47,806 nucleotides of DNA from Alphaproteobacteria bacterium (GTDB lineage: Bacteria; Pseudomonadota; Alphaproteobacteria; Rhizobiales; JAJRRF01). Location: the NCBI GenBank assembly GCA_024279735.1, contig JAJRRF010000166.1, positions 1 through 47,806 of the forward strand, written 5' to 3'. Positions 6,623-44,366 of the stretch are shown here, piece by piece (within the stretch, counting starts at the first letter, position 1; each line of letters begins with the position of its first letter). Position numbers and translations under genes: made by a program. Under the pieces are notes generated by a model. That model searched no databases, was not told where the DNA came from, and saw nothing but the letters and a program-made list of their open reading frames with translations.

Positions 6623-7003
6623 ATGCAGGGGGCAACATCACCAACACAGTTGGGCTTTGCGTTTTATTATCCGCCTGAGCGGGTGATTGCGGCTGGGGTC
6701 TATTATCGGGCGGCAGCTTCGCTGATTGGCAAGGGGCGCGGCCAGGTGCGTTTTCCCGTCGGAATGGTATTGCCGCGTGTCAGTTGGCGCAAACGCAAGC
6801 GGCAAGTGGCGGCCTATCTGGCTGTGACCCATGGCGGCTTTGCCCAGGCCGATGTTGCCAATTATCTGGGATTGAGCCGCAATAGTGTGTGGCATGGTTG
6901 CCGCACGATTGAGGCTTGGCGTGATGAGGAGCGGGTGCGCTTTTTTTTACGCAGGCTTGAGGGGCGGCTAGACGAGATGAGGCCATGTCATGCTGGATTT
7001 TAA
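6623..7003 (+). CDS. DnaA domain IV-like HTH protein (candidate replication initiator or regulator)
   Basis: RKRQVAAYLAVTHGGFAQADVANYLGLSRNSVWHGCRTIEAWRDEE follows the pattern of the DnaA C-terminal DNA-binding domain (ARQIAMYL...IG..FG.RDHTTV.HA..KI). This is pattern recognition only. Confidence 0.5.
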   Translation: MQGATSPTQLGFAFYYPPERVIAAGVYYRAAASLIGKGRGQVRFPVGMVLPRVSWRKRKRQVAAYLAVTHGGFAQADVANYLGLSRNSVWHGCRTIEAWRDEERVRFFLRRLEGRLDEMRPCHAGF

Positions 7004-13566: not shown

Positions 13567-15234
13567 ATGAATATTCAAGTCAAACCAAAGCGCAGTGAGG
13601 CAGAACAGCAGGTCTCAAACCTAAAACGCCTGCGTAAGCGGGCGGAAAAACTGGAAAACGGGCGCAGCGCGTGGGATAGCCTGCTTGACCAGGTGAATAA
13701 ATATATTATCCCTTACCGTGCCAATACCCGCGCAGGCAACAATAAGGCAAATGTCGGTGATAATCTGACAGATGACATCTTTGATGCCACCGCGCCAAAG
13801 GCGGTTTTCCGCTTTGCAGGCATGTTTGCCGAACAAATTCTGCCTGAAAATTTCTTTGAGCTGGATGTCGGCCCCGTGCTGGAACTGGCAATACGCAATG
13901 AAGCAGGTGATGAGGCAGACGATCAAATTAAAGCCGAAAAGGAAAGCCTGGATATTGTCAGTAAAATCGTCAAGGCAGGTCTTAATACGGGCAGTTTTGC
14001 CACCTCTAAGCATGAGGCAGGCCTGGACTTGGCCAGCGGCACGGCAGCTTTATTGCTCAATAAAGGTGATCCTGAGCAAGGCGATGATGTGCTGGATGCA
14101 ATGTGCGTCTCTATTCGTGAAGTCACCCCAGAATATGATACCCGTAACAGATTGCGCGGCGTGGTCTGGCCGCGTATGATCCCCGCCGATGAACTGAAAG
14201 AGCAGTGGCCGAAGGGCAGATTTTCCGACAAAATAAAAAAGCTGATGGATGAAGAGCCTGACCAAGAAGTCAAGGTCTATCAATATACCCGAAGGCAGGG
14301 CAAAAAATGGCAGCTCACAGTCTGGTGCGCTGATGATGAAGACAACCAGCCGCCAATTTTTACCGAAGAAAGCCGCACATCGCCCTGGATTATCCCGCGC
14401 TGGTTCGTTGTCCCGGGGGAGCCGTTTGGCCGTGGCCCTGCCATGATCTCCCTGCCATTTGTCAAGGTGCTGAACAAGGCTCAGGAATTGGCACTAATGG
14501 CCGCCGCCTTCGCCGTGATGCCGATTTGGATGGTCAAGGATGACCAGGTATTTAATCCTGATAATGCCCGCCAAGAACCAGGGGCATTCTGGCCAGTGCG
14601 CCATACAGGTGGCCGCGCGGGGTCATCCATCCAGCCTTTGCCCGTGCCAAATAATTTTGATGTGTCGTCTGTGGTGATAGCCGAGTAACGGCAACAAGTT
14701 CAGACTGCCATGTTTGATGAACCGCTCTATAGCCAGTCCGATGCAGTCAGAAGCCCAACCGAAATTGCAGACCGCCGCGCCGTCCATAACCGCGACCTGG
14801 GCGGGGTATTTGGCCGGCAAACCATGGAAACCGTGCGGCCAATAGTCCAGCGCGCAATAGAAATATTATTTGATGCTGGCCAGTTGCCGCGCGATGTCAA
14901 TATCGACCAGCTGCTTTATAAAATCAAGATTGTCTCACCAATGGCAGACCAGATGCAGGCCTTGGAAGTCAAGGCTACTGTTGATTGGCTGTCCATGATC
15001 GGCCAAATGGCAGGCCAGGAAGCGATGATGCTGGCCGTGCGATTGGAAAAGACCTTGCCAGATATAGGCCGCAAAATGGGCGTGCCTGAACAATATATCG
15101 CCACCAAGGAAGACATGAAGCAAATCACCCAGCTGGTTGCCCAAATGCTGGCCGCCCAACAACAAGCCCAGCAAGCAGAGCAAGGCGGCGGACAACAGCA
15201 GGCCGAAGCCCCGCCGCCTGGCTTGCCGGTCTAA
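13567..15234 (+). pseudogene. portal (head-to-tail connector) gene interrupted by one in-frame TAA at 14686-14688
   Basis: Track ORFs 13567..14688 (373 aa) and 14710..15234 (174 aa) are in the same frame. The reading continues ...VVIAE*RQQVQTAMFDEPLY. The combined ~555 codons and the position between terL and scaffold fit a podoviral portal. Confidence 0.65.
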
Positions 15235-20745: not shown

Positions 20746-21174
20746 ATGGTAGACGAAACACCTAAACAAGGAAAGCCAACAATAAGAGAGTTGGAAATTG
20801 GAACACAAATGTTCACTAAAGTGATCGCACTTGATGAGCCTTCAAATGGTGGGGCTTCGCATTTATATGTAACGATTCCTGCTGGTTTTGATCTAACAGA
20901 TGCAAACAATGCTATTCCTGCTGTCGTTAGAAATAATGCAATTTGTGAAATACATTTTCAGCAAGGCCCTACAAAAGAAGTGGGTTTAAATGGTGTGCAT
21001 CATGATGATCTTTTGGCCATGATTATTGATAGAATTCAGGGCTTTCAATCTGGGGATTTTAAATGCCGTGAAAATGCTATTGCTATCACAAAATTGGAAG
21101 AGGCTAAGCATTGGCTTGATCATAGGGCAAATAATCGCAAGAAGCGAGGTGTACTAAGTACAAGCAAAATTTGA
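20746..21174 (+). CDS. A+T-rich accessory ORF (142 aa, moron)
   Basis: Intact ORF 3 nt after the nozzle gene stop. Line 20761-20820 is 21/60 G+C by hand count, against about 50-65% in its neighbours. The C-terminal helical motif is FKCRENAIAITKLEEAKHWLDHRANNRKKRGV. Confidence 0.65.
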   Translation: MVDETPKQGKPTIRELEIGTQMFTKVIALDEPSNGGASHLYVTIPAGFDLTDANNAIPAVVRNNAICEIHFQQGPTKEVGLNGVHHDDLLAMIIDRIQGFQSGDFKCRENAIAITKLEEAKHWLDHRANNRKKRGVLSTSKI

Positions 21175-21287: not shown

Positions 21288-21800
21288 ATGGCTTCAATGG
21301 TGATGGGTCTGTTTACAGCAATGGGCACGGGGGGCGGTCTGCTGGCAACAGGCAGCGCGGCCCTTACAGGTATGCAAGGGCTGATGACCGCTGGCAGTGT
21401 TTTGTCGTCTGTGGTCGGCGGTATCTCTGCCTATAATACAGGGCAGACCCAGCAAGAATGGGCAAACCTCAATGCGCAAGGCGAGGAGCTGAAAAGCCGT
21501 GATGCCGCCGTTGGCATTCGTAAAGACATGCTCCGCAATCTGGCCAGCCAGCGGGTTGCCTTTGCAGGCAGCGGCGTTGATATTAGCTATGGCACGCCCG
21601 AAACGCTCTATCAAGATACCCTCAATGATGGCCAATATAATATTGACATGACCATGAATAACGGCGCAATCGCAGCCGCTGGCCAACGTTATCGCGGCCA
21701 ACAAGCCGCCAATCGCGGCGCGCTTAGTGCATTGCGCTACGGCGTGAAAGGAGTCAGCACCGCAGGCCGTTATCTGACAGATATTAGCAGAAGGGGATAG
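21288..21800 (+). CDS. gp14-like internal virion protein
   Basis: 170 aa with a Gly/Ala-rich hydrophobic N-terminus (GLFTAMGTGGGLLATGSAALTG). Lies before the gp15/gp16-like genes. Confidence 0.55.
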   Translation: MASMVMGLFTAMGTGGGLLATGSAALTGMQGLMTAGSVLSSVVGGISAYNTGQTQQEWANLNAQGEELKSRDAAVGIRKDMLRNLASQRVAFAGSGVDISYGTPETLYQDTLNDGQYNIDMTMNNGAIAAAGQRYRGQQAANRGALSALRYGVKGVSTAGRYLTDISRRG

Positions 21801-22000: not shown

Positions 22001-24241
22001 ATGCCAGCAAACACCAACCGCCGTCCCGTCCAGATGCCTTTGGCAAATGATACCCGCACGGTTGCGCCAACCGCCAGTCTTGACCCAGGCGGCCATGATA
22101 TTGGGGCAGGGGCATTGTTTGACGATCTTGCGCGCGGCTTTGACCGCCAGGCCAGCCAGCTTGGCCAGTTGGCAGACAAGGCCGCACAAACAGAGGGCTA
22201 TGAAAGCGGCCTGACCGCTGGCATGGATAACGAATTTAGGCCGCGCCGTGATAATACTATTCGCGGCAATGCCTTTGATATGGCAGGCATAAAGACCGCT
22301 GGCAACCGCCTGCGCTCAGGGATGCGCAATGATCTTGCGGCGGCGTTTGAAAAATACGGCGATGATCCTGCGGCGCTCAAAAAAGCCCTGTCAGGGGCAG
22401 CCAAAGGCTATATTGGCCAGGCCAATAAAATTGACAAACGCCTTGGGGCAGATTTACAGGGCAGCTATAGCAGCGCGTCCCATACCTTTATGCGCCGTGC
22501 CACCCGCAGGCAGGTCAAGCGCGTCAATGCCCAATATCTGCAAAGCACCAAGGCTGATCTGACCGACCGCGTCAAGACGATGGAACAGGATGCCTATTAT
22601 ATTGGCCTTGATCCTGTGGCTTCAGACTATATGGCGTCAGACTATAGCGCGGTGCAAGCCTCGCTCCAGGCCAGAACCGTAGACGGCAAGCCGCTTTTCA
22701 CACCAAAGCAGCAGCAAAAGCAGCTCAAAGGTCTGAAGGACAATATCACCATTGCCCGCATTTCTGGCACGTTTGAGCGGCTGGAAGGGCTGGAGGCCAA
22801 GGAAAAATTTGTCCAGGATTTGGAAAGCCAGTGGCAAGACAGCAAGGGAATAGCCGCAAGTTTTGACCGTGACGGCCTCGACAAGCTAAAATTGCGCCTG
22901 GGCAAGCATTTGAAACAGGAACAGTCAGGCCGCAAGGTGGCGGTCAAAGCCCTGGAAGGGCAAGTTAAAAAATTTCAAAAACTGGTTGAGTCTGGTCATA
23001 ACCTCAATGTTGAGGATATGGGGCGTTTTGAACTGGACTGGGCCACCAACGCAGACCCAGAGGTGTATCAAAAATATGAAAAAATCAACCGTCTTAACAA
23101 TTTCCAGCAATCCTTCAAGATGCAACATCCAGGCAAAATGGCAGGGATGCTGGAACAGAAGCGGGCGAAACTGGCTCAAGACACAGGGCTTGGCACAGAG
23201 GAACGCCTGCAACTATCCGATGAGCTGGATATGGGCGAAAAAATCCTGGCAACCGTGCGCCAGGAGCTAAAGACCGACCCGCTTAAATGGGCAGCCAAGA
23301 CAGGCCGTTATGCTATTGAACCGCTTGACCGGCAGAATTTTCAGGCCAGCCTGGAAAACCGCATTGCCACGGCTATCACCATTGGCGATGATTTTAATAT
23401 TACCCCGCCTTACTTAAATCCTGCCGAAAAGCAACAAATGTTGGCTTCAGCTTATGACGGCGGTGAGCAGTTTGTCGCCTTGCTTGGCAATATCACCGAA
23501 GCGGCGGGAAGTCATAGCCAGGCGATTTTGGCGCAAGTGTTTGACAAGTCACCAATGCTGGCACAGCTTGGGGCAATGGCACAAAATGCAGCCACCCCTG
23601 ACATGGTGGCGCAAATTGCAGACCATATCAAGCGGCGACGCAGTGGCAAGGAGTATATGGGGGCTGCCTTGTCACAAAAAAAGGCCAAGGAATTTTATGC
23701 CAGCTCAGGTTATGAGTCACTTTTGCGCGGACGGGGAAAAACGCAGGATAGCATAATGGCACTGGCTGGTGCGATTGCTGAAATAAGCGCGAACACAACA
23801 GGCAGGACGGAAGTGGATGAGGCTGATTTTCACAAGGCGATGCGGATAGCCCTTGGGGAGCAGGTGATAAATGGCAAGACTTTTGGAGGTATTCACACAG
23901 AAGACGGTGGCTATCTCTGGGGCAAAGCCAGCCAGACCATCATTCCGCCTTTTGTTGAGGCAAAGCAGTTCAGGCCGTTGGTTGAGGCTATGCGTGATGA
24001 GGATTTGACCAAGCTAGGCAATCCAAAGCATGGCAATGGCACAGCGGCTACGGCGGCTGAAATTAAAGACGGCCAGCTGCATTATATTGGCGATGGTAAA
24101 TACCAGCTTGAAACAGCCCAAGGCTTTTTGGCAGGGGCAGATGGTGGCCGTTGGGTACTCGACTATAAAGCGATGATGCAACTCACAAGCAAGCGGCAAA
24201 GCGCGGGTTTGCCTTTGATGATGCCCTTTCTTCCCTTTTAG
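22001..24241 (+). CDS. gp15-like internal virion (ejectosome) protein
   Basis: 746 aa (T7 gp15 is about 747 aa from memory). Largely helical sequence, positioned between the gp14-like and gp16-like genes. Confidence 0.55.
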   Translation: MPANTNRRPVQMPLANDTRTVAPTASLDPGGHDIGAGALFDDLARGFDRQASQLGQLADKAAQTEGYESGLTAGMDNEFRPRRDNTIRGNAFDMAGIKTAGNRLRSGMRNDLAAAFEKYGDDPAALKKALSGAAKGYIGQANKIDKRLGADLQGSYSSASHTFMRRATRRQVKRVNAQYLQSTKADLTDRVKTMEQDAYYIGLDPVASDYMASDYSAVQASLQARTVDGKPLFTPKQQQKQLKGLKDNITIARISGTFERLEGLEAKEKFVQDLESQWQDSKGIAASFDRDGLDKLKLRLGKHLKQEQSGRKVAVKALEGQVKKFQKLVESGHNLNVEDMGRFELDWATNADPEVYQKYEKINRLNNFQQSFKMQHPGKMAGMLEQKRAKLAQDTGLGTEERLQLSDELDMGEKILATVRQELKTDPLKWAAKTGRYAIEPLDRQNFQASLENRIATAITIGDDFNITPPYLNPAEKQQMLASAYDGGEQFVALLGNITEAAGSHSQAILAQVFDKSPMLAQLGAMAQNAATPDMVAQIADHIKRRRSGKEYMGAALSQKKAKEFYASSGYESLLRGRGKTQDSIMALAGAIAEISANTTGRTEVDEADFHKAMRIALGEQVINGKTFGGIHTEDGGYLWGKASQTIIPPFVEAKQFRPLVEAMRDEDLTKLGNPKHGNGTAATAAEIKDGQLHYIGDGKYQLETAQGFLAGADGGRWVLDYKAMMQLTSKRQSAGLPLMMPFLPF

Positions 24242-24255: not shown

Positions 24256-27200
24256 ATGCTTTTACTTGAAGACGCGCCGCAAGGCAATATTTCAAAAGGC
24301 CCAGCCACTAGCGGGGCTGAAATGTACGCCGCGATGCGGGATGACCAGCTCTATGATAATGGCTCTATCATGAAGCAGAGGGCTGTCAGGAAAGGCTGGG
24401 AAGATAAGCTGGCCAGCATCGAGAAGGCCAGTGGCCAAAAAATAACGTTACCGCTATTTGATGGCGTGTTTATGCCCACTTTTGGCGGCGTTGATCCTGA
24501 ACAAATGCAGCAGCTGCAATTGCGGGCTGTGACTGACTATCGCCAGACAGTTTCCAGGATAGAGCAACTGGCACAGCAATATCCAGAATATTATGAAAAA
24601 TGGATGACTGACCCTGAAACGGCGGGGCATGAGGTCTCGCGGGCGGCTGATAAACGCCTGCGTGATGTATCAGGCCGCAACCAGTCCATGCTTAACAGTG
24701 TCATGGGCTTTGGGGGCGCATTTGTCGGCGGTATGCAAGACCCGATTAATTTGGGCCTTGCCCCGTTTGGCATGACCAAGGCGGTTGGTCAGGGGGCTTA
24801 TCAGGTGGTGCGGGCAGGGGTCATTAATGGCCTGATTGGCGCGGCGGGTGAAGCCGCGATCCAGCCCTTGTCACAGCAATGGCGCAAGGAAGCGGGGCTG
24901 AAATATGGCTGGGGCGAAGCTGCTAAAAATGTCGGGATGGCCTTTGCCTTTGGCTTTGGCATAGATGCAGGAGTGCGCGGCGCATGGCGCGGCGGCAAGT
25001 TGCTGAAGGGCAAGATTGACGGCAAGCCAAGCCAGGCGCAAGCCGATGCCTTTTATGGCGGCCTGAAGGGATTGGATGAGGCCGAAAATCAGGCGCAGGC
25101 TTATGAGATTATAGAGGCAGCTGCTGGCCACCTACCCGGCAATAACCCGTTGCACAAGGCGTTGCTTGGCAAGGATTATAAGTCATTGCTGCAAGCTGTG
25201 CATCAGGTGGACCCTGACCAGGCGCAGGCCTTGAGTCAGGCGCGGGCTGAATACGGCGATGGCAACGCCGCTATTGCTGACGATGAATTAAGAGGGGCGG
25301 CAAATTTTCTCGAGGGGGAAGATGGCCGCGCCGTGCCTGAAGGCCTGCACGCCGCCGATGATACCGCCGCCGAAGTCCAGGCGCAGCGTCATGTCACTGA
25401 CCAGGACGAACCGCCCGCAGTGATGCCAAAGCCGCAGAAAGAAGGGGGGCAATCATTGCAGGACGGGGCGAGACATCCCTTGCCGCCCTCTGGGACATTA
25501 GAAGGCAAGCCCTATACCAGCCAACAGCTGAAACCTTCCCAAATACAGGCCGATGCCAAGACGTTCCAGTTTAAGGAGGGCGGTGATGGCGAGGGTGTCA
25601 CCAGCCGCCTTGGCGATGTTGGTCAGTGGAATCCAGCAGCCAGCGGAAAAACCATGATTTTCCAACGTAATAATGGCGATTATATTATTGCTGATGGCCA
25701 CCAGCGGCTCGGACTTGCCAAGCGGTTAGCCAGGCAGGGAGACGAGATTAGTCTTGATGCGATGATCTTTAAGGAAAGTGATGGTTGGACACCAAAGCAA
25801 GTGCGAGAACAGGCGGCGAAAAAAAATATTCAGGAAGGTTCTGGCACAGCTTTGGACTATGCCAGGCTAATGCGTAGTGCGCCTGAATTGATTGATAATA
25901 GTGTGCCGCAAAATTCAGCCAAGATGACCCATGCCAAGGGGTTGGCAAATTTGTCAGATGATGCCTTTGGCCTGGTGATTAACGAGATTGTGCCAGAAAA
26001 CCATGCCGCGCTTGTCGGGCGGTTGGTGGCAGATCAAGAATTGCATGTTGATATTTTGCAGCAAATGGCCAAGGCAGATTTATCCAGCGAAGCGCAAGCC
26101 CGCATTTTTATTGGCCAGGCCTTGCAGGCAGGCCATGAGGAACTCACCCAAATGACGTTATTTGGTGAAGAGACCGCCAAATTGTCTTTATTGCCCGCAA
26201 GGACAAAAATTCTCAGTGATGCTTTGAAAAATTTCAAGCAGAACAAACGCCTGTTGGCAGCAATCAATGACAATGCGGCGCAGGTCGAGGCGGTTGGCAA
26301 TAAGGTCAATAAGGATGCCAATGCGCAAAAATCCCTGCAATCCGCGCAAATGGCGGAGCTGGTGGAAAAGCTGGCCAGCACCCATGGCCCCGTCTCTGAT
26401 GCTTTGCGCCGTGCGGCTCATATGATGGCGCATGACGATATATCCGTCACCAAAGCCCGCAAAATCTTTATGGAAGATGTAGAGGAGCTGTATAGCAAAC
26501 AAGGGCTGGAAGGGCTGATAAACCCGAAAAAGCCAGATGACCTGACCATTGAACCTGGCAGTCCTGAAGCTGAAAATCAGGGCGACTTATTGGCCGCGCG
26601 GTTTGATGAGTTCCCCGAAAATGCGGAAAGCCCTGCCGATTTTGCCGCCATCGTGCAGCGTCTGCCTGAGCCTGTGCGGGCGGAGCTGGTCAAGGTGATT
26701 GACCTGCCAGAAGGCGCGGCGAAGTCTGTGGATGCTGCCGCTGTCACTGCCACCTGGGACAGGGCGAAAAATCTCATCCAGGTGGCAATGCACAACGCCG
26801 ATCCAGCCGCCAAATTGCGCCATGAAGAAATTCATGCCCTGCGGGATTTAGGGCTGTTTACAGACAGGGAATGGAAAGTTTTACTTGATGCTGGTCAACA
26901 AGCTGGCATTATGGCGGAAAAAATTAATGGTGATATGACCAGACAAGACCTGTATGGCCAGGCCTATGCTGGCCGCTCTGACCTGGCGGAACTTCTGAAC
27001 CAGGAAGTGGTTGCCCATTTGGCAGAACGCCGCAAGGCAGGGGAAGACCTGGGGCAGCAAGTCAACACCATCCTGGACAAGCTGCTGGATTTTCTCCGAA
27101 AGACAGGCAATGCCTTGCGCGGCATGGGATTCCAGACCGCAGAAGATGTGTTTAGGCGGATAGAAAGCGGTGAGATTGGGCGGCGGACGCAGAATGTCCA

Positions 27201-30200
27201 AGGGCAGGATGGAATTGCCTATTCGCTTGAGCCAGCCCCAACTTTCTACTCTAATCTAACGCGCGGTATTGAGGCCGTGAAACAGAACAAAGCCCCTGCC
27301 AAGCAGTGGCAAGCTATGATTTCAAAAATGCCAAGCATATCTAAAGATGAGCTGGAATGGAATGGCGTTCTGGATTGGCTTGGCGAACAGAAGGGCAGTG
27401 TAAGCAAGCAGGATGTGGCTGATTATATCAAGCAAAATGAGATAGTTTTGCGCAAAAATTCTACCAGTAATGAAATTCAATCGACGCCAAGCCGCACTAT
27501 CTTTGATGATAAAATCCAGATTCAGGCTGGGACACATAAATTATATGCCCAAAAAAATGAGTATGATGAGTATAATATTTATCATCCTGCTGCTGACCCA
27601 GATAATCCCGTTTTTGATATGGAGTTCCATCCTGACCACGAATGGGGACAGGAGGAGATTTCAACTTATTTAAATGATAATTATTATTTTTTTGAAAAAG
27701 AATATGCTGAAAACACACAAAAAGGCGGCGATAACTATACTGAGACAACGATAGAGCTGGTGAGTTCACGAGGGGAAAATTTTGATGATCAACATTTTGG
27801 TCCAAATAATACTATTGCTCATATACGTCATAAAGACCGAATAACAGCCAAAGGTGAAAATCTGCTTTATCTGGAAGAGGTGCAATCAGATTGGCATAAT
27901 TCGGGGGCAGATATTGGATACAATACTGCCAGTGAAAAATCCTCTTTGATAGAGCGAAACAGGTTAATTCGTGAGGAAAACAAAGAATCAAACAATAAAT
28001 TAATCAATCAGCAAAATGATATTATTCAAACTGTAGAAAGCGTTTTAGCAGATTCAAATCCTGCTTTAAGCAGGAATATTGATAGCTTGCTTTACAATTT
28101 AGAAAGAGGGGAGTTTGCTGAAGCAAAACAAAAAATTGATAGTTTAGAAGACGGTTTGTCCAAATATCCTGAAATTTTAGTGAAAATAGAAAAATTCGCG
28201 GATCAGGTCTTTGCGCAACCCCCTGCCAAACCCACCCTAAGAGCCGGCGTATCTGACGCCCCATTTAAGGGAGATCGCTGGATGGAGATGTCCCTCAAGA
28301 AGATGCTCCGTCATGCGGTCGATAATGGCTATGAGGCTATTAGCTGGAACAGGGGCGCACAAATTGCAGACGTTTCCGAAGGTAGGTTTTACAACTTGCC
28401 CAAACAAATAAGCTGGAAGTCTGATGGCAAGAAGATTACGCTTGACGGCGTAGATAAACCCTTGACTTTAAAAGAGATTGAACAAGGAATCAGCCCTCAA
28501 CTTGCGGCTGATATTTTTAACGAAACCAAAGCAAAAAAAATAAGCGGAATAGCCGAAAATAAAGCGGACTATAAATTGCCTTCGGAAGGGTTCAGGCTAG
28601 AATATGACCAGAAAATACCGCGCTTTTTAAATAAATTCACCAAGAAATGGGGCGGTAAGGTTGAGTTTGAGATTTTGCCAGATTTTGCCGATACCAATAC
28701 CCCAAATGGGGTATTGCGCATTACTGATGAGATGCGCAAAAGTGTTAAGCAGGGGATGGCTTACTCGCTTGAACCGCGCCGCAGCCAGGACTTGAGCCGC
28801 CAAAAGGGGGAGGACAGCCAAAGCCAAACACGGGCGAATACCCGATCAGCAGCTGTACCGCGCGGGCAAGGGCGAAACGATTCATATAATTCAGCTGATA
28901 TTCCTCCAGGGATAGAGTCCCTAGACATCCAGTCATCCAGCCATTTAAAAAATGATGAATTCTTGATTGATGATGGCGGCTCTTGGTTCAATAAATTATC
29001 CTCGCTGGTTGGTCTTGGTCAGAAAATTGTAGCAAAATATCCTGAAACATTCAATGGGGAGGCTTTCAGGTCATGGTTTGGCGGCTCAAAGGTGGTGACA
29101 AAAAGTAATGAGCCATTGATTTTATATCATTCTACAAATGCAGAATTTGAAACATTTAGGCCAGGGACAGGTGACTTAGGAATGCACTTTGGCACATCAC
29201 AGGCGGCAAGCGACCGATTGCCTGCCCAAAAACAATATGCCAAGGAGGCTGGACGTTATTATAAGGAAGCTGACCAGATATTGCCAGTTGTACTTTCTAT
29301 TAAAAACCCTTTGCACACAGAAGACTATATCAATTGGCATGCCCCCAAAGGTGTGGTAAGTAAAGACGTTCAGGCAGCAGTCATGTCAGCTGATAAAGAT
29401 TTGGGAAAACGCATTGCGGCGGCGGAAAAATATAAATTGCATCCAAATAATATTTTGGAGATTCAGAATATTGGTGTCAAGCAACAGGCAGATATTATCA
29501 GGGCTGATTTGCAAAGGCAGGGCTATGACGGGATTGTCTATACCAACGCCGTTGAGGGCAGGGGTAGTAAAAGTTATATTGCCTTTGAACCCACTCAAAT
29601 TAAGAGCTTGTTTAACCGTGGCACATTTGACGGCAGTGACCCGCGTATCACCTATAGCATAGACCCAGAAGAAGCCCTGGACGGGGTGCGCAAGGCGTTG
29701 GCCGAGGCTGACCAGGCTTTGGGCAAGGGCGGCAGAAGCGCGCAAGACCAGGCGGAGCTGGACCAGCTGGCCAAGGACGCGCCTTGGGAAGACAAGCCAG
29801 GGGCAGAGGGGGCAGGGCAACAGCCGCAAAGCCAAAATCTGGATGATTTTCTCAATCAGATAGGCCAGGAGTTTGCCGCAAAATCTGGCCTGGAGTCAGC
29901 GGTGCGGATAGAGCAGATCAGGGCGAAGGGGCAACAGGCCGGGCTGGATGAAGCGGAAATTCAGCAGGCCGTAGAGCAAATTATGCGGTCTGGCTCTGAC
30001 CCTGTTTCCCTGCCTGGCCAGCGGCCTGAAGCAACGCCAGAGGCAGAGCCTAATTTTAGGGGCACGCCTGAAGAACAAGCCGCGAAACGGGCGCAATATA
30101 TTGAACAGAAACGCCGCGCCGTTCTCACGCTTGTCGCAGCGCAGCGGGTCAAGGCCGATATGATGCGCCATAAAAATGCCAAAGGCCAGCATGACATGGT

Positions 30201-32694
30201 TGCCGCTGCTTTGAGCCATATGGAAAATTTTGGCACGGCCAAGCATAGCGCGATAGCCCAAAGGGAGACCGAAATTCTTGGCCAGGCGATGACGCGGATG
30301 AGCGAATTTGCCCGCGAATTTGAACGCACCAAATTAATGGGTGTGACGCCCAAGCAAAAAATGGGTCTGTTGCATGATATTATTCGCGAAAGCTTTGGCG
30401 AAAAAACGGGCAATCTTCAGGCTGAAAAAATGGCAACCGCCTGGTTTCAAACCCATGAGGGTTTGCGCGGCCGCTTTAACAGGGCAGGCGGCATGATCGG
30501 CAAAATGGACAAATGGGGCTTGCCGCAAAGCCATGACCAGATGGCGGTCAGCAAGGTGACATTTCAGGACTGGTTTGATGTTATCAGCCCGCTGCTGGAC
30601 AGAAATAAGACCGTGCATCATATCACAGGCCAGCGCATGAATGACCAGCAGTGGCATGACAGCTTGCAACATATTTATGAAACCATTGTCACCAATGGCC
30701 AGAACACCAGGCAGCCCAGTTTGCAGGTGCAAGGCAGCGGCGCGCTGTATAAACAGGGCAGTGAAGCGCGTTTTCTAAATTTCAAAAATGCAGATGACTG
30801 GCTGAAATATGCCGAGCAATTTGGTAATGTCTCTGGGACGCATGGCGCAGACCTTGGCTTTCATAGCATGATGCGCCATCTCCAGGGCTTCAGCCGTGAC
30901 ATTGCCGCGATGGAAATATTAGGGCCAAACCCTGCGGCGATGCAAAATTATATGCGCGGCCTGATTGAGCAAGAGCTGGGCAAGTCCCGTCTTGGTCAAG
31001 CCTCAGCTTTACCTGTCGATGGCAGGGATGAGCAGGGCAGGCCTTTTGTCAAAACCCTGACAGGGCGCAAACTCAGCCATGACGATTATGTTGGCAGGGG
31101 GCTTAAAAAACTCGATGACCATTTTGATATTGCGCGCGGGGTGCTGGACAGTCCTGTTGACCAAGGGCGTGCCAATTTTGGCAAGGCGGTGCGCAACTGG
31201 CAGGTGGCCACCAAGCTGGGTTCTGCCACCCTGTCAGCTATTGGCGATATTGCCACCTTCAAGGCAGCACTGAAATTTGCAGGCATGAAAAATCAGCAAC
31301 TTATTATCAAGGATATTTTCAAATATATCCAGGCAGAAGACCGCCATTTTGCCGTCAGGTCAGGCCTGATCCTGGACAGTGCCATGTCTATGGTTGCGAC
31401 GGAAACCCGCTTTGGCGGGGCGGTCGAGGCCGCGACCCGCACAGGTAAAATTGCTGACCGCACCTTGGCCTGGAGCGGACTGGGAGCCTGGACGCAGGCC
31501 ATCAAACATGCCTTTGGCATGGAGACCATGGCCAATTTTGCCCGCGTCCGTGATTTGCCGTTTGACCAGCTTGACCCTAAAATGCGCAGGCTGTTTGACA
31601 ATTACGGCTTAGAGCCTGGCCAGTGGGACTTGTTGCGCAGTTTTGGCACGACCGAGCATAAGGGGGTAAAATTTTTGCGCGGCGTAGACATCTCCAAAGT
31701 GATTGATGAAGCCAGGCCGTATCTCGCCGCCTTGCGTGAAGCAGAAAAGACAGGGCAGTTGGACGACTTTATGGCCAGGCCGCAGCCAGGGCGCGGCTAT
31801 TTTGACCAGCTCAAGGGGCTGCTGGCAGAGCGGCAAAAAAGCGGGCTATATCAAGACCCTGACTTTAATGTCAATTTGCATAATCTCAGCGCGGACATTT
31901 TGGCGGCCAAGCAAAAATATATGGAGATGATCCATGCTGAAACCGAATATGCCGTGCCAACAGGCACAATTGCGTCCCAGGCGATTACCAAGAAATTCCA
32001 GGCGGGCACACCAGAGGGCGAAACCTGGCGGCTATTCTTCCAGTTTAAGGCTTACCCAATCAGCATTTTGATGATGCAAGGCGGGCGCACCATGCGGCTG
32101 GTGCATGGCGAAGGGGCAGCAGCAGGGGCGAAATATGCCGCCAGTACCTTTATGGCTATGACCCTCGCAGGCGGGGTGATTGGCACTTGGCTGAAAGACC
32201 TCAAGGCAGGCCGTGACCCTGATATGGATTTTACCAGCCAAAAAAATTGGGGACGCTGGATGGCGCAAGGCGGCGGCATTGGCATTATGGGGGACTTTTT
32301 GTTCTCTGACCATAACCGCTTTGGCGGCGGCCCCTTATCTACTTTTGCAGGCCCGGCCTTTGGCGAGGTTGAAAAAGTGTTGCGTGCCACTGCTGGCAAT
32401 GCGCAAAAACTATTGACTGGCAAAGACACCAGTTTTGCCAAGGATGCCTTGGGTATCGTGCGTTCAAACACGCCAGCCATAGGCTCTTTGTGGTACACTG
32501 CCACCGCCTATAACCGCGTCTTGCTTGACCAGATGAACTATCTGGTTGACCCGTCTGCCAGCAAAGCCTTTAGGCGCAGGATGAAAAAACGCGAAACAGA
32601 ATATGGCCAACAATATTTCTGGCCGCTTGGTGACACCAGCCCCGCCCGCGCCCCTTCAGGCAGCAGCCTAGGGGAGACGTTTAGTTTTCAGTAG
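24256..32694 (+). CDS. giant (2812 aa) gp16-position internal virion protein with a polyvalent-protein architecture
   Basis: A single uninterrupted ORF. It has a ParB-like segment (NNGDYIIADGHQRLGLAKRL, about 25528-25760), HExxH (HEEIH, 26821-26835), LYLEEVQSDWH (27865-27897), an ART-like module (LILYHST...GMHFGT...GYDGIVYTNAVEG...EPTQIKS, about 29080-29660) and a hydrophobic C-terminal region (about 32038-32356). Confidence 0.8.
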   Translation: MLLLEDAPQGNISKGPATSGAEMYAAMRDDQLYDNGSIMKQRAVRKGWEDKLASIEKASGQKITLPLFDGVFMPTFGGVDPEQMQQLQLRAVTDYRQTVSRIEQLAQQYPEYYEKWMTDPETAGHEVSRAADKRLRDVSGRNQSMLNSVMGFGGAFVGGMQDPINLGLAPFGMTKAVGQGAYQVVRAGVINGLIGAAGEAAIQPLSQQWRKEAGLKYGWGEAAKNVGMAFAFGFGIDAGVRGAWRGGKLLKGKIDGKPSQAQADAFYGGLKGLDEAENQAQAYEIIEAAAGHLPGNNPLHKALLGKDYKSLLQAVHQVDPDQAQALSQARAEYGDGNAAIADDELRGAANFLEGEDGRAVPEGLHAADDTAAEVQAQRHVTDQDEPPAVMPKPQKEGGQSLQDGARHPLPPSGTLEGKPYTSQQLKPSQIQADAKTFQFKEGGDGEGVTSRLGDVGQWNPAASGKTMIFQRNNGDYIIADGHQRLGLAKRLARQGDEISLDAMIFKESDGWTPKQVREQAAKKNIQEGSGTALDYARLMRSAPELIDNSVPQNSAKMTHAKGLANLSDDAFGLVINEIVPENHAALVGRLVADQELHVDILQQMAKADLSSEAQARIFIGQALQAGHEELTQMTLFGEETAKLSLLPARTKILSDALKNFKQNKRLLAAINDNAAQVEAVGNKVNKDANAQKSLQSAQMAELVEKLASTHGPVSDALRRAAHMMAHDDISVTKARKIFMEDVEELYSKQGLEGLINPKKPDDLTIEPGSPEAENQGDLLAARFDEFPENAESPADFAAIVQRLPEPVRAELVKVIDLPEGAAKSVDAAAVTATWDRAKNLIQVAMHNADPAAKLRHEEIHALRDLGLFTDREWKVLLDAGQQAGIMAEKINGDMTRQDLYGQAYAGRSDLAELLNQEVVAHLAERRKAGEDLGQQVNTILDKLLDFLRKTGNALRGMGFQTAEDVFRRIESGEIGRRTQNVQGQDGIAYSLEPAPTFYSNLTRGIEAVKQNKAPAKQWQAMISKMPSISKDELEWNGVLDWLGEQKGSVSKQDVADYIKQNEIVLRKNSTSNEIQSTPSRTIFDDKIQIQAGTHKLYAQKNEYDEYNIYHPAADPDNPVFDMEFHPDHEWGQEEISTYLNDNYYFFEKEYAENTQKGGDNYTETTIELVSSRGENFDDQHFGPNNTIAHIRHKDRITAKGENLLYLEEVQSDWHNSGADIGYNTASEKSSLIERNRLIREENKESNNKLINQQNDIIQTVESVLADSNPALSRNIDSLLYNLERGEFAEAKQKIDSLEDGLSKYPEILVKIEKFADQVFAQPPAKPTLRAGVSDAPFKGDRWMEMSLKKMLRHAVDNGYEAISWNRGAQIADVSEGRFYNLPKQISWKSDGKKITLDGVDKPLTLKEIEQGISPQLAADIFNETKAKKISGIAENKADYKLPSEGFRLEYDQKIPRFLNKFTKKWGGKVEFEILPDFADTNTPNGVLRITDEMRKSVKQGMAYSLEPRRSQDLSRQKGEDSQSQTRANTRSAAVPRGQGRNDSYNSADIPPGIESLDIQSSSHLKNDEFLIDDGGSWFNKLSSLVGLGQKIVAKYPETFNGEAFRSWFGGSKVVTKSNEPLILYHSTNAEFETFRPGTGDLGMHFGTSQAASDRLPAQKQYAKEAGRYYKEADQILPVVLSIKNPLHTEDYINWHAPKGVVSKDVQAAVMSADKDLGKRIAAAEKYKLHPNNILEIQNIGVKQQADIIRADLQRQGYDGIVYTNAVEGRGSKSYIAFEPTQIKSLFNRGTFDGSDPRITYSIDPEEALDGVRKALAEADQALGKGGRSAQDQAELDQLAKDAPWEDKPGAEGAGQQPQSQNLDDFLNQIGQEFAAKSGLESAVRIEQIRAKGQQAGLDEAEIQQAVEQIMRSGSDPVSLPGQRPEATPEAEPNFRGTPEEQAAKRAQYIEQKRRAVLTLVAAQRVKADMMRHKNAKGQHDMVAAALSHMENFGTAKHSAIAQRETEILGQAMTRMSEFAREFERTKLMGVTPKQKMGLLHDIIRESFGEKTGNLQAEKMATAWFQTHEGLRGRFNRAGGMIGKMDKWGLPQSHDQMAVSKVTFQDWFDVISPLLDRNKTVHHITGQRMNDQQWHDSLQHIYETIVTNGQNTRQPSLQVQGSGALYKQGSEARFLNFKNADDWLKYAEQFGNVSGTHGADLGFHSMMRHLQGFSRDIAAMEILGPNPAAMQNYMRGLIEQELGKSRLGQASALPVDGRDEQGRPFVKTLTGRKLSHDDYVGRGLKKLDDHFDIARGVLDSPVDQGRANFGKAVRNWQVATKLGSATLSAIGDIATFKAALKFAGMKNQQLIIKDIFKYIQAEDRHFAVRSGLILDSAMSMVATETRFGGAVEAATRTGKIADRTLAWSGLGAWTQAIKHAFGMETMANFARVRDLPFDQLDPKMRRLFDNYGLEPGQWDLLRSFGTTEHKGVKFLRGVDISKVIDEARPYLAALREAEKTGQLDDFMARPQPGRGYFDQLKGLLAERQKSGLYQDPDFNVNLHNLSADILAAKQKYMEMIHAETEYAVPTGTIASQAITKKFQAGTPEGETWRLFFQFKAYPISILMMQGGRTMRLVHGEGAAAGAKYAASTFMAMTLAGGVIGTWLKDLKAGRDPDMDFTSQKNWGRWMAQGGGIGIMGDFLFSDHNRFGGGPLSTFAGPAFGEVEKVLRATAGNAQKLLTGKDTSFAKDALGIVRSNTPAIGSLWYTATAYNRVLLDQMNYLVDPSASKAFRRRMKKRETEYGQQYFWPLGDTSPARAPSGSSLGETFSFQ

Positions 32695-40361: not shown

Positions 40362-40435
40362 TGGAGGCCTCGTCCGGAATCGAACCGGAGTAGACGGATT
40401 TGCAATCCGCTGCGTAGCCACTCCGCCACGAGGCC
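40362..40435 (-). tRNA. tRNA-Cys (anticodon GCA)
   Basis: Hand-folded: acceptor GGCCTCG/CGAGGCC, anticodon stem GCGGA/TCCGT with loop TTGCAAA, T arm TCCGG-TTCGATT-CCGGA, discriminator U and an encoded CCA. 74 nt. Confidence 0.9.
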
Positions 40436-40827: not shown

Positions 40828-42366
40828 CTACTGTCCCTTTTTGCCCTGGTTGGCGAAACGGATGGCTTCATCAGCGGCGCGGAACAATGCCTTGGCCTTG
40901 TTGACACATTCATCAAACTCATTTTGTGGCACGCTGTCGGTGACAATTCCGGCACCTGCCTGAACATACATCACCTTGTCCTTGACCACAGCTGTGCGCA
41001 GCACCAGGGCACTGTCCATATTGCCGTCAGCAGAAAAATAACCAACGCAGCCAGCATAAATACCGCGCCTGGATTTCTCAAGCTGGTCAATGATTTCCAT
41101 CGCCCTCACTTTTGGCGCGCCTGAGACAGTCCCTGCGGGGAAACCTGCCATCAGGGCATCAACCTCATCAAATTTGGGGTCAAGCTTGCCCTCTACATTG
41201 GAGACGATATGCATGACATGGCTGTAATATTCCAAAAAGAAGCTGTCTGTTACCTTTACACTGCCAGGGAGGGTAACCCTGCCAACATCATTTCTGCCCA
41301 GGTCAAGCAACATAAGGTGCTCTGCACATTCCTTCTTGTCGGCCAGCAGCTCTTTTGCCAGTTGTTGGTCCTGTTGCTTGTCCTTGCCCCTGGGACGGGT
41401 GCCGGCAATCGGACGGATGGTAACTGTCTTGTCCTGTGCCTTGACCAGAATTTCAGGGCTTGAGCCAACAATAGAGTAGTTATCAAAATTGAGGTAGTAC
41501 AGATAGGGAGACGGGTTGGTGCGGCGCAAGGCGCGGTACAGGGAGAAAGGCGGCAGCTCAAATGGTGTCTCGAATCGTTGCGACAGGACAACCTGGAAAA
41601 TATCCCCTTCAGTGATGTAGTCCTTGGCCTTTTCGACTATTTTTTTATAGGCGGCGGGGCTGGTATTTGATTTGGGCTTGGGGGCTGGCTTGACAATTTC
41701 GGCCTGCTGCATCCCGCGCAGATCCAGCGGTGTTTCGAGTTTGTCGACAGCGTGATCAAGACGCTCCAGGGCGTGTTCATAAGCCACTTTCGCGCTGAGT
41801 TTATTTGGGCGCACAGGAGTCACGAGAGTGATTTCATCCTTTACGCTGTCAAAGACTGCCATGATTGTGGGACGGATCATTACGCTGTCTGGCAAGCCGA
41901 GGTCGTCAGGGTTGTTGTCTGGCAACTGCTCAACCAGCCTGACAGTGTCATAGCCCATATAGCCAAAAATACCGGCTCCCATAGGTGGCAGGTTATCTGG
42001 CAGGTCAATGTGCGACTGTTTCAGTATGGCGCGTAATGAGGTCAGGGTATCCTCTTTACAGGGGATAAAGCCTTTTTTGTCCCCAGCTTTTGCTGTCCTT
42101 ATTTGGGCGGTGTTGCCGTTGGCCTGCCAGACCAGGTCTGGATCCAGCCCGATAATGGAGTAACGACCCCGTGTTGCCCCGCCCTCAACTGATTCAAACA
42201 GGAAGGCATTTTTTTTGTGGGCTGCCAGCTTCAGGAATGCCGAAACCGGTGTCTCAAGGTCTGAGACCAGGGAGGTCCAGACAACCTGTGGTTTGCCAGC
42301 ATTATAGTCGGATTGAAATGTCTTGAAATCTGGTAGGTTTGGCATTGGCTGTCCTGCCATCATCAA
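40828..42366 (-). CDS. trpE: anthranilate synthase component I
   Basis: 512 aa with LLDLGRNDVGR and GTVSGAPKVRAMEIIDQLE signatures. Confidence 0.95.
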   Translation of the reverse strand: MMMAGQPMPNLPDFKTFQSDYNAGKPQVVWTSLVSDLETPVSAFLKLAAHKKNAFLFESVEGGATRGRYSIIGLDPDLVWQANGNTAQIRTAKAGDKKGFIPCKEDTLTSLRAILKQSHIDLPDNLPPMGAGIFGYMGYDTVRLVEQLPDNNPDDLGLPDSVMIRPTIMAVFDSVKDEITLVTPVRPNKLSAKVAYEHALERLDHAVDKLETPLDLRGMQQAEIVKPAPKPKSNTSPAAYKKIVEKAKDYITEGDIFQVVLSQRFETPFELPPFSLYRALRRTNPSPYLYYLNFDNYSIVGSSPEILVKAQDKTVTIRPIAGTRPRGKDKQQDQQLAKELLADKKECAEHLMLLDLGRNDVGRVTLPGSVKVTDSFFLEYYSHVMHIVSNVEGKLDPKFDEVDALMAGFPAGTVSGAPKVRAMEIIDQLEKSRRGIYAGCVGYFSADGNMDSALVLRTAVVKDKVMYVQAGAGIVTDSVPQNEFDECVNKAKALFRAADEAIRFANQGKKGQ

Positions 42367-42488: not shown

Positions 42489-44366
42489 TTAGTTTTTCCC
42501 CAGCAGCCTGTCAAGCTGTCCCTTATAGACAGTCACCTTATAGCGTTTTTTCAGGCTGTCTATATAGCTTTCCAAGTAATCCTGCTGGTATTGGTTGACC
42601 AATGCCTTGTTGATGCCCTCCAGGGATTTTTTTTCGGGTTTTTCAGGTGTCTCAACCTTGCTGACCTGAAAAATGATCCGCCCCTTGCCGTCATTGGAGC
42701 GGGCAGAGGAGTAGTCATTTTTGTGGATCATATACGCCTGGGCAAGGACTGTCTGGGACAGGTTCTTGTCTTGATCCGTCCGTTTCAGGGCCTTGGTCGT
42801 CTTGACCTTGGTCTTGTATTTTTTTGCCATTTTTGTCAGTGTCTTGCCAGCCTTCAGATCCTTGACAATCTGTGCTGACATCTTGTTTAGGGCTTGCAGT
42901 TTCTCATTGTCCAGCCATGCGGTGAGTACCTTCTTGCTGACATCTTTCAGGTCTCTGTTTTTAGAGGGGATAATGTCGGAGACAGCAAACCAGGCAATGG
43001 CATCCCTGCCCAGTTCTACAGGGTCATTTTGTTGCCCAACATCACTCGCGAACGCATTGACCAGGATACGGGCGGCAATGCCGTCAACCTTTTTGCCAGA
43101 TATATCCTTGCCTTCCTTGTCAGAAACAATACCTTCAGAGAAGGAAAGCTTGTTATTTTTTGCAATGTCACCAAGGCTGGCTCCTGTGGCACGTTGTTTC
43201 TCAATTTTTTCTGCCAGCGTAGAGATTTTGTCCTTGGCTTGTTCCAGAGCCAGCTGGCCAGCTATCTCTTTTTCGACATCCTTAAAGGGGGTGATAACTG
43301 CTTTGGTGACATCCTGGACATAGACCAGGGCGGTTACAAACTCCCCCTGGATGGGTTGGCTGATTTCACCTTTCTTAAGGGTGAACGCGGCCTTGGCGAC
43401 TTTGGGGTCAACCATATCCTTTTGGGTGAGGTTGCCCAGGTCATAGTCTGCCTTGGAGATTTTGCGTTTTTTGGCAAGTGCGAGGAAATCTTTTTTGGTC
43501 TTGAGTTTGCTGCGTGCCTCCTTGGCTTCCTTGATGCCTGGGAACAGTAGTTGTAGCAGGTGACGCTTGGCGGGAGTGCCAAAGCGCGCCTTGTTTTTTT
43601 CATAGCCAGCCTTGATATGGGCTGGATCAACCTTGATGGACTTGGCCAGTTCCTTGGCAGAAAGCTTGAGGAAGGATATCTTGCGGTATTCCGGTGCCTT
43701 GTACTGGCTGGTATGAAGGCTATAATATTTTTTCAGAGCCTCATCAGAAGGGGGCTTGATTTTTGGCAGCCTTTTTTCAGACAGGACAAAGTAGCTTAGA
43801 GTACGTTTTTCATGGTCGTGGCGATAGGCCGCCTCTGACAATACCTTGGGGACATGAACCATGCCTGTCATGGTCTTGGTGAGCTGGCTGCGTATCATGC
43901 TGGTGCGTTGTTCTTTTAGATAGGACTGTTCTGTCAGGTTGTTCAGACTCAAAATTTCCTGAAACCTTTGTTTGCTGAAATTGCCGCCAGACTGGAAAAG
44001 GGGGTTTTTCAGGATGCTCTGCTTGATCTGGTCTTCAGAGACGGTCAGACCCAGGTCATTGACATGGTTGTCAAGTGCTGCGCCGCCCACCATCGTGTTG
44101 AGGACATTCTTGTCAATCTGGAAAGCCCTTGCCTGGCTGTTTGTGATCTGTTGCCTGATCCTTTGTGAAAAGATACGTTTCTGGCGGTCAAAGGCATTGG
44201 AAAATTCTGCGGAAGAAAGTTCTATGTTGCCAATTTTTGCCAGCGTAGTATTCTGCCTGGCTGTGAGCATGTCGCCGATACCCCATGCCCCAAAAGCAAG
44301 AATGATAAGACCGATTAAGATTTTGACGATCCAGCCGCCTGTACTCTTGCGTAATAAATCAAGCAT
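42489..44366 (-). CDS. ppiD: periplasmic chaperone / peptidyl-prolyl isomerase, PpiD family
   Basis: 625 aa with an N-terminal membrane anchor (WIVKILIGLIILAFGAWGIGD), a SurA-N-like region and a parvulin-like segment. Its position next to trpE is typical of Alphaproteobacteria. Confidence 0.8.
   Translation of the reverse strand: MLDLLRKSTGGWIVKILIGLIILAFGAWGIGDMLTARQNTTLAKIGNIELSSAEFSNAFDRQKRIFSQRIRQQITNSQARAFQIDKNVLNTMVGGAALDNHVNDLGLTVSEDQIKQSILKNPLFQSGGNFSKQRFQEILSLNNLTEQSYLKEQRTSMIRSQLTKTMTGMVHVPKVLSEAAYRHDHEKRTLSYFVLSEKRLPKIKPPSDEALKKYYSLHTSQYKAPEYRKISFLKLSAKELAKSIKVDPAHIKAGYEKNKARFGTPAKRHLLQLLFPGIKEAKEARSKLKTKKDFLALAKKRKISKADYDLGNLTQKDMVDPKVAKAAFTLKKGEISQPIQGEFVTALVYVQDVTKAVITPFKDVEKEIAGQLALEQAKDKISTLAEKIEKQRATGASLGDIAKNNKLSFSEGIVSDKEGKDISGKKVDGIAARILVNAFASDVGQQNDPVELGRDAIAWFAVSDIIPSKNRDLKDVSKKVLTAWLDNEKLQALNKMSAQIVKDLKAGKTLTKMAKKYKTKVKTTKALKRTDQDKNLSQTVLAQAYMIHKNDYSSARSNDGKGRIIFQVSKVETPEKPEKKSLEGINKALVNQYQQDYLESYIDSLKKRYKVTVYKGQLDRLLGKN

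Follow-up and report, generated by a model that had tools for sequence, protein, structure and literature searches.

A cysteine-free 2812-residue protein of an alphaproteobacterial prophage: a predicted fusion of a cargo-bearing carrier with an Epsilon15 gp17-family virion protein

The stretch of DNA analyzed here, referred to as the window, comprises all 47,806 nucleotides of contig JAJRRF010000166.1 from an alphaproteobacterial genome (GenBank assembly GCA_024279735.1), and carries a prophage of ~39 kb bounded by an exact 48-bp direct repeat (1446–1493 and 40362–40409). Within this prophage, a single unbroken open reading frame (ORF) on the + strand runs from an ATG at 24256 to the stop codon at 32692–32694 (24256..32694), and encodes a protein of 2812 amino acids (aa) that contains no cysteine. 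Ahead of the giant ORF, in order, are genes for the terminase, the portal and the scaffold (both T7-type), the major capsid protein, and tail tubular proteins A and B, then a 142-aa ORF, a gp14-like phrog_418 “internal virion protein” of 170 aa (21288–21800, + strand), and a 746-aa protein that is placed in the gp15 position by gene order (22001–24241, + strand). Fibre-like genes and a cell-wall hydrolase lie downstream.

The C-terminal region of the giant protein, aa 1941–2812 (30076..32691, + strand), is a virion structural and putative ejection domain related to Epsilon15 gp17. It matches the phrog_684 “virion structural protein” profile with an E-value of 4.8e-158, with aa 1942–2801 aligned to positions 56–835 of 840, and is 27–32% identical by tblastn to phiV10 p20 (the equivalent of Epsilon15 gp17) and to proteins of SPN1S and of Vibrio, Pelagibacter, and Pseudomonas podophages. 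A comparison of the block with T7 gp16 gave a best BLASTP E-value of 0.18, which amounts to no detectable homology, and the PHROG match is to phrog_684 and not to the gp16 family; the 746-aa protein likewise shows no detectable sequence similarity to T7 gp15. On these matches, the C-terminal block is assigned to the Epsilon15 gp17/phrog_684 family, and the name gp16 is positional only. The initial annotation, made from the letters of the window, had described an uninterrupted 2812-aa ORF in the slot after gp14 and gp15, and in this it was correct, as it was in placing every motif that it quoted; its placing of the ORF in the ejection-gene block is right as regards position, but not as regards homology to T7 gp16. 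The proposed fusion to an ejectosome component holds insofar as the extra modules are continuous with a virion structural protein that fills the gp16 slot, but that protein belongs to the Epsilon15 gp17 family and not to that of T7 gp16. A membrane-like helix, described as part of a long C-terminal half, is recognizable as a hydrophobic 19-mer at aa 2628–2646 (32137–32193), while the conserved structural block occupies only the last third of the protein.

In relatives of this prophage, the two ends of the giant protein are encoded by two genes. A gene homologous to its N-terminal region, hereafter the carrier gene, lies directly upstream of a separate phrog_684 gene in ~27 loci, namely in “Dunaliella viridis virus SI2”, in one Logan contig, and in ~25 bacterial genome loci, the two-gene loci being mostly alphaproteobacterial prophages of Stappia, Aureimonas, Methylobacterium, and Sphingopyxis. 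Among the loci examined, the fused form occurs only in the window and in P0157, a 2421-aa protein from NCBI assembly GCA_054001895.1 (locus L003) with the same synteny, which is 73% identical to the window protein over aa 1–779, 71% identical over the HExxH module, and 64% identical over aa 1798–2805. The two parts of the window protein are connected by an A/E/Q-rich linker of 426 nt, aa 1799–1940 (29650..30075, + strand), which is partly conserved in P0157 and occupies the position that in the two-gene relatives is taken up by a stop codon, an intergenic gap, and the cysteine-bearing tail and head segments of the two proteins. The GC content at third codon positions (GC3) of the linker is 0.63, a coding-like value. 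Hidden Markov models (HMMs) of the carrier Cys-tail and of the gp17-like Cys-head did not significantly match the linker in either fused protein; two peptides, “ALAEAD” and “GLESAV”, resemble a fusion scar by eye, a resemblance that these models do not support.

The distribution of cysteine residues sets the one-gene and two-gene forms apart. The 170-aa, 746-aa, and giant proteins of the window, 3728 aa in total, have no cysteine at all, while cysteine makes up 0.8% of the residues encoded by the other prophage ORFs; at that frequency, the probability that 2812 aa would contain none is ~1e-10. Stand-alone carriers, in contrast, have a cysteine within their last 8 residues in 105 of 120 cases, and in 104 of these 105 it is the sole cysteine of the protein. 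Stand-alone gp17-like proteins have a cysteine at residue 5–7 in all 28 cases, and it is the sole cysteine in every complete one save that of locus L007, which has a second; their N-terminus reads M-x-x-x-[DS]-C-[LI], with a GTG start in three. The same arrangement, with one cysteine near the end of the upstream protein (2–11 residues from its C-terminus) and the other at residue 5–7 of the gp17-like protein, is found even where the upstream proteins are unrelated. In phiV10 (locus L004, 7193–11472), p19, the equivalent of Epsilon15 gp16, shows no similarity to the carrier and is not homologous to it, and yet carries Cys596 of 600 residues ahead of a p20 that begins MRQEC; in Pseudomonas phage YA3 (locus L047, 2620–7085), an upstream protein that is also non-homologous to the carrier has Cys634 of 640 residues, and the gp17-like protein has Cys5. 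Paired cysteines are listed in addition for loci L001–L043. Both fused proteins lack both cysteines as well as the short segments that bear them. Because the cysteines are present where the genes are separate and absent where they are fused, an end-to-end tether is predicted: in the virion, a disulfide or a shared metal probably connects the upstream protein, at its C-terminus, with the N-terminus of the gp17-like protein, and we infer that the fusion replaces this cysteine link with a peptide. A literature search found no paper on paired terminal cysteines.

These data also bear on whether the giant ORF might stem from an error of assembly or sequencing, or from a stop codon lost very recently, with two genes that are really separate in this prophage. 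Such a view could draw on the separation of the two parts in ~27 related loci, and on the portal gene (13567–15234), which is split by a lone in-frame TAA at 14686–14688 (between ...VVIAE and RQQVQ...) and could be taken to indicate errors in the sequence. However, P0157 is an independent, diverged copy of the same fusion from another assembly, 64–73% identical to the window protein with the start of the linker included, and for this reason a sequencing artefact is excluded. In addition, the 426-nt linker has a coding-like GC3, the two terminal Cys segments are absent rather than merely read through, and no convincing ribosome-binding site and start codon were seen from which the gp17-like part could be translated internally. 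An artefact is thus largely refuted and, in our estimation, highly improbable. On the evidence of these relatives, the giant ORF is best described as a true fusion, conserved in evolution, of two neighbouring late genes from a temperate podophage of the Epsilon15/T7 type.

The N-terminal part of the fusion begins with a conserved carrier region, aa 1–404 (24256..25467, + strand), which is homologous to the N-termini of carriers of 750–1700 aa and includes a Gly-rich hydrophobic stretch at ~24703–24990, with its hydrophobicity maximum at aa 184–202 (24805–24861). The homologs of the first 1000 aa, all of 750–1700 aa, have in common the N-region (~aa 10–250) and a ParB-like core (~aa 415–750), after which they diverge. 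The cargo that follows the carrier is a Zeta toxin/kinase in many of these homologs, and ART-PolyVal, RelA/SpoT, PBECR3 RNase, or SLT in others. By this pattern of conservation, the Gly-rich N-region and the ParB-like domain are parts of a conserved carrier and not add-on effectors.

The ParB-like core itself, aa 405–770 (25468..26565, + strand), is composed of a ParB N-domain and a helical domain, matches phrog_10691, and is described here by alignment A1 and by an AlphaFold2 (AF2) model searched with Foldseek. Its motif IFQRNNGDYIIADGHQRLGLAKRL (25657–25728) includes a D-G-H-Q-R sequence (25693–25707) that is invariant in the 28 sequences of alignment A1, as are several further positions. 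The AF2 model has a predicted local distance difference test score (pLDDT) of 90.6, and its top 25 Foldseek matches in the PDB are all of the ParB type (Noc, ParB, KorB, Spo0J, and pNOB8 ParB). The best of these is Noc (7nfu; E 1.9e-5 over 227 columns), other top matches include ParB 6t1f and 7bnr from Caulobacter and Myxococcus, KorB, and Spo0J, and sulfiredoxin scores lower; the structural match runs past the Srx-like N-domain into the adjoining helical region. The ParB assignment is thereby supported at the level of the fold only, and in this model-based view the domain probably binds nucleotides and DNA. The core lacks a canonical GERR motif, and D-G-H-Q-R may be the counterpart of the ParB GERR, with the Arg of the G-x-x-R box, on the basis of an informal alignment and not of a residue-level structural one. 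The same core was also observed in ~11 further loci and in Ruegeria phage 45A6, where it belongs to other giant proteins that have no gp17-like partner. In loci without a gp17-like gene, giant ORFs of 2458–4350 aa join the ParB-like core, the HExxH module, and module 4 (both described below); examples are those at 6808–18546 of L046 (Ruegeria phage 45A6), 8840–16216 of L010, and 7832–20881 of L021.

The carrier is followed by an HExxH, or zincin-like, module at aa 776–987 (26581..27216, + strand), which contains the sole HExxH sequence of the giant protein, HEEIH (26821–26835), and a conserved Glu917 (27004–27006). An exhaustive phmmer search with this module returned 1596 representative proteins at E ≤ 1e-3, nearly all of 1000–7300 aa, and 80 of 149 giant HExxH-module proteins from this search are, like the window protein, free of cysteine. 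Over 175 instances, His856 is conserved in 95%, Glu857 in 92%, His860 in 95%, and Glu917 in 95%, the remainder being gaps, and all four residues are invariant in alignment A4. A PDB profile search with the module found only de novo helical proteins. Polyvalent proteins carry metallopeptidase (MPTase) domains whose signature combines an HExxH-bearing helix with a Glu on the following helix (Iyer et al. 2017, PMC5512222), and, judged by its conserved residues, the HExxH module bears this zincin signature.

Between the HExxH module and the linker lies a cargo cassette of low GC content, aa 988–1798 (27217..29649, + strand). Its GC content is 0.41–0.48 and its GC3 0.39–0.44, while the flanks have a GC content of 0.51–0.60 and a GC3 of 0.53–0.63. 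The homology between the window protein and P0157 ends at aa 992 and restarts at aa 1798, and in the interval, where the cassette is replaced, P0157 has a different ART-like insert and no module 4. By composition and by its replacement in P0157, the cassette is foreign and is interpreted as horizontally acquired.

The first part of the cassette, module 4 (aa 988–1501; 27217..28758, + strand; GC 0.41, GC3 0.39), is defined by an invariant EExQSDWH, which reads LYLEEVQSDWH in the window (27865–27897). It has 32 homologs, and alignment A3 shows the invariant elements NY.E, H, AH.R, EE.QSDWH..G...GY, and DAPFK. Module 4 has no Pfam match, and its family profile found only noise in the PDB. Its AF2 model is of medium confidence, with a pLDDT of 65.8, and a Foldseek search of BFVD with this model returned 24 large uncultured-phage proteins at E ≤ 1e-3, some of them labelled as containing LPD or ART-PolyVal domains. 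Module 4 is regarded as an uncharacterized module of polyvalent proteins that is enzyme-like and, in its modelled fold, weakly GNAT-like. Assignments as a PD-(D/E)xK nuclease or a DPPY-type methylase were considered and set aside, as they rest on motif resemblance and the fold search does not support them.

The second part of the cassette is an ADP-ribosyltransferase (ART) module, aa 1601–1798 (29056..29649, + strand; GC 0.44, GC3 0.42). The Pfam family PF18760 (ART-PolyVal) matches aa 1619–1787 (29110–29616) with 49.6 bits in the whole protein and 54.9 bits in the segment, against a cutoff of 31.2. Its motifs are LILYHST (29116–29136), GMHFGT (29179–29196), GYDGIVYTNAVEG (29521–29559), and FEPTQIKS (29584–29607), and the alignment shows a subfamily pattern, YH[ST]...G.HFGT...Y.N..EG, that is common to many homologs. 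Membership in the ART family is established by this profile match; catalytic activity is uncertain. ART-PolyVal is the sole Pfam family found in the giant protein, and nothing other than the ART emerged from NCBIfam with the whole protein, Pfam with nine overlapping segments (E ≤ 10), or PDB phmmer. Taken literally, therefore, the profile searches named in the initial annotation for ParB, metallopeptidase, and ART homology bear out the ART alone, which it had called ART-like and which lies above the Pfam cutoff. Its broader recognition of polyvalent-protein hallmarks is upheld by the ART-PolyVal match, the ParB-like fold, the conserved HExxH...E, and the swapping of cargo among relatives. Its ParB/Srx-like segment is recovered by AF2 and Foldseek and missed by Pfam, NCBIfam, and PDB sequence profiles, and, together with the Gly-rich hydrophobic N-region, which is present with its peak at aa 184–202, it belongs to the carrier instead of being an add-on; the HExxH sequence, read there as a metallopeptidase, is indeed conserved as HExxH...E almost exclusively in giant proteins, while neither Pfam nor the PDB provides a peptidase match.

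The borders of the cassette and of its modules are marked by a short peptide. Copies of it occur between the HExxH module and module 4 (AYSLEP, aa 988–993; 27217..27234, + strand), at the end of module 4 (AYSLEP, aa 1502–1507; 28759..28776, + strand), and at the end of the ART, where the block common with P0157 starts (TYSIDP, aa 1799–1804; 29650..29667, + strand). These are the only three YS[LIVM] tripeptides in the giant protein, all of the form [AT]YS[LI][ED]P, and they lie at the cassette edges and at the internal module border; the outer junctions of P0157 read AYSLD and AYSIS. As the two AYSLEP copies use different synonymous codons, it is the peptide that is conserved and not the DNA, and a DNA-level repeat or recent duplication at the junctions is ruled out. 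The noteworthy feature is that the motif coincides with the module borders, and comparison with other giant proteins indicates that it is lineage-specific and not a general feature of polyvalent proteins.

Taken together, the giant protein is read here, with moderate confidence, as a two-gene fusion of a carrier, its cargo, and a gp17-family protein that is delivered at infection. The protein would be produced late and enter the virion together with the other Cys-free internal proteins, and at infection would be threaded unfolded through the tail, where the lack of cysteine would keep it from being trapped by oxidation in the periplasm. The gp17-like end, which has the hydrophobic helix (aa 2628–2646), may help to build an envelope-spanning conduit, and the cargo would enter the cell ahead of or along with the DNA and act before phage gene expression, as has been proposed for polyvalent proteins (Iyer et al., PMC5512222) and is known for T4 Alt. 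In the cell, the ART would modify host targets, and the ParB-like domain would act on DNA or nucleoside triphosphates (NTPs). In the two-gene relatives, the carrier and the gp17-like protein would be tethered end to end through their single terminal cysteines, in place of which the window protein would have its peptide linker. More speculatively, the HExxH module may cut at the YS[LI][ED]P junctions and so free the modules. A bolder and rather doubtful extension, offered tentatively, holds that Epsilon15-type podophages of enterobacterial, Pseudomonas, alphaproteobacterial, and marine hosts generally drag swappable cargo into the cell by a chain joined through terminal cysteines, and that the window protein is the hard-wired version of this chain, from which an HExxH protease frees a new enzyme family (module 4) and the ART at YS[LI][ED]P.

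The observations that weigh against delivery of active enzymes concern the place of the gp17 family in the virion, the state of the prophage, and the modules themselves. Guichard and colleagues are said to have suggested in 2013 that Epsilon15 gp17 may reside in the tail hub or tube and not in an internal core, and genetic work reportedly placed Epsilon15 gp15 and gp17 in the central tail tube. The giant protein could accordingly be a structural component of the tail hub or tube, whose enzymes work in the periplasm or at the surface of the cell, or else on proteins or DNA of the phage itself, in maturation or the handling of genome ends. The SLT peptidoglycan hydrolase of some carrier homologs, which acts in the periplasm, fits such a role, as does the listing of Epsilon15 gp17/16 in one published source as part of a packaging/injection device, and MPTase domains have been proposed to serve chiefly in self-processing (Iyer et al., PMC5512222). 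However, the upstream genes already include those for T7-type adaptor and nozzle proteins, the ART, Zeta toxin, RelA/SpoT, and PBECR RNase domains need cytoplasmic substrates (NAD+, UDP-N-acetylglucosamine (UNAG)/ATP, GTP, and RNA), and the total lack of cysteine fits transit through an oxidizing periplasm. A tail-hub or tail-tube role is therefore considered unlikely.

Delivery at infection is also called into question by the portal gene, the second piece of which (14710–15234) matches positions 363–488 of Pfam Head-tail_con. Its in-frame TAA reflects either an error in the sequence or a nonsense mutation, and in the latter case the prophage would be defective. This prophage copy may consequently not make virions. 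Among the modules, the ART retains His1625, and departs from the H–Y–D configuration of the ART-PolyVal family, with H on strand 1, Y on strand 2, and D on strand 5 (PMC5512222), in having H/F for Y in strand 2 (GMHFGT) and N/E for D in strand 5 (YTNAVEG). Neither the query nor 27 homologs matched the Pfam ParBc or DdrB-ParB models at E ≤ 10, and a PDB sequence-profile search with the ParB-core family profile gave only noise; the HExxH module has no Pfam peptidase match in the query or in six homologs; and the PDB fold matches of module 4 are weak, if recurrent, with GNAT proteins (SSAT at E 0.036, the ICL2 GNAT domain, Eis, and viral N-acetyltransferases), none reaching E ≤ 1e-3. For the junctions, [YF]S is found downstream of HExxH modules in 21.5% of cases vs. 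a background of 17%, other giant proteins show no enrichment of [AT]YS[LIVM], and by a rough estimate an exact hexapeptide repeat is unremarkable in a protein of this size. Some of these points would suit a defective prophage in which the modules are decayed relics, with the ParB-like, HExxH, and ART domains catalytically dead and serving as spacers at most: the nonsense codon in the portal gene, the altered ART triad, and a ParB core that lacks the canonical GERR and escapes the ParBc profiles. Yet a stop-free ORF of 8.4 kb is unlikely under neutral decay, the ART variants (HFGT and Y.N..EG) are common to many homologs and so mark a subfamily instead of decay, the HExxH/E and DGHQR residues are invariant across distant relatives, and the junction peptide has been kept through synonymous changes. 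Decay of the modules is thus regarded as quite improbable, and delivery of the carrier, its cargo, and the gp17-family protein at infection remains the preferred reading.

If this reading is right, it would have consequences for how podophage ejection proteins are viewed, since these are seen mainly as builders of a conduit, and their known enzymatic add-ons are essentially cell-wall hydrolases. A whole lineage of temperate podophages would instead use the position next to the gp17-like protein to carry swappable toxin-type enzymes (ART, Zeta kinase, RelA/SpoT, and RNase), and the carrier can even be directly continuous with the structural protein, giving a size that is exceptional for the gp16 slot. 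This suggests how short-tailed phages may tether injected anti-host enzymes to the DNA-delivery apparatus. The cysteine tether, if true, could explain both the packaging and the export of the cargo, and can be checked by simple biochemistry. Two widespread families are flagged as well, the HExxH module (~1600 representative clusters) and module 4. The general polyvalent concept dates from 2017; what is new here is the relation between the two-gene and one-gene forms, the carrier-plus-cargo organization, and the terminal-Cys pattern.

Other features of the locus concern the integration of the prophage and its smaller genes. The 48-bp repeat overlaps the 3′ part of a tRNA-Cys gene (40362–40435, − strand), an integrase gene (1582–2721, − strand) lies at the left end of the prophage, and host genes resembling trpE (40828–42366) and ppiD (42489–44366), followed by tpiA (44749–45507), lie to its right. 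Just outside attL, a second, weak integrase-like ORF (36–1376, − strand) has matches to Phage_integrase and Int_N that are both below cutoff, which suggests that a different element once occupied the same tRNA site and left this remnant. The 142-aa ORF that follows tail tubular B (20746–21174, + strand) matches the Acb2/Tad1 hairpin domain below threshold (PF24729; E 9e-5, 23 bits vs. a cutoff of 27), and PF24729 is also recorded for its homolog in the fused relative (L003, 2197–2625); on this match, it may be an anti-CBASS/Thoeris sponge-like protein within the structural module. In L003, a nucleoside 2-deoxyribosyltransferase-like gene (PF15891; 3201–3641) stands between the gp14-like and gp15-position genes, and the equivalent place in the window holds only a short, unassigned ORF stretch. 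A megablast search against phages found nothing for the giant ORF, and IMG/VR peptide patterns and an exact-protein look-up found nothing for its product.

Among known systems, the giant protein most recalls the polyvalent proteins of Iyer, Burroughs, Anand, de Souza, and Aravind (2017, PMC5512222), which likewise combine several unrelated enzymatic domains (ART-PolyVal, ParB/Srx, zincin HExxH, and “LPD”-type) in one giant polypeptide, occur among late virion genes, vary in cargo, and are predicted to be delivered with the DNA. In contrast to these, the window protein is continuous with an Epsilon15 gp17-family protein in a T7-type gp14–gp15–gp16 order, and its ParB-like and HExxH modules are not recognized by the Pfam models derived from that work, which nowhere mentions gp16, “internal virion”, or “ejection”. 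The N4-like virion RNA polymerases with ART/MPTase domains and P1 DdrB, as described in the same paper, are also virion-packaged, injected giants that combine MPTase, ART, or ParB-like domains; they differ in core function (RNA polymerase and Dar anti-restriction, respectively) and in virion location, the likeness considered here being one of module types. In the isolated roseophage Ruegeria phage 45A6, the hypothetical protein ANH49087.1 (3912 aa), which is probably the seed of phrog_10691, is a giant ORF with the same ParB-like core at 41% identity, but the core lies at ~aa 730–1040 of a different giant protein, and phage 45A6 is absent among the matches listed by tblastn with the whole window protein.

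T7 gp16 (internal virion protein D) resembles the window protein in its slot after gp14-like and gp15-size genes, its large size, its C-terminal hydrophobic helix, and the presence of an enzymatic domain on an ejection protein, which is SLT in T7. However, the two share no detectable sequence similarity, the window protein has no SLT domain, and its length is 2.1 times that of the largest gp16-like protein listed by the Swanson/Cingolani review (1337 aa). With Epsilon15 gp17 and phiV10 p20 (PHROG 684), the homology extends over the C-terminal 870 aa and nearly the whole profile, and the gene is similarly the last of the internal/ejection block, before the fibres. Members of this family are stand-alone proteins of ~820–870 aa with an M-x-x-x-x-C start that holds their sole cysteine, whereas the window protein is extended by 1940 aa at its N-terminus and is free of cysteine. 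The closest counterparts are “Dunaliella viridis virus SI2” (YP_009020992 and YP_009020993) and the alphaproteobacterial and marine prophages that have the same carrier, gp17-like gene, and synteny. These keep separate genes with one terminal cysteine each, and their carriers, of 750–1700 aa, bear either no cargo or a single domain.

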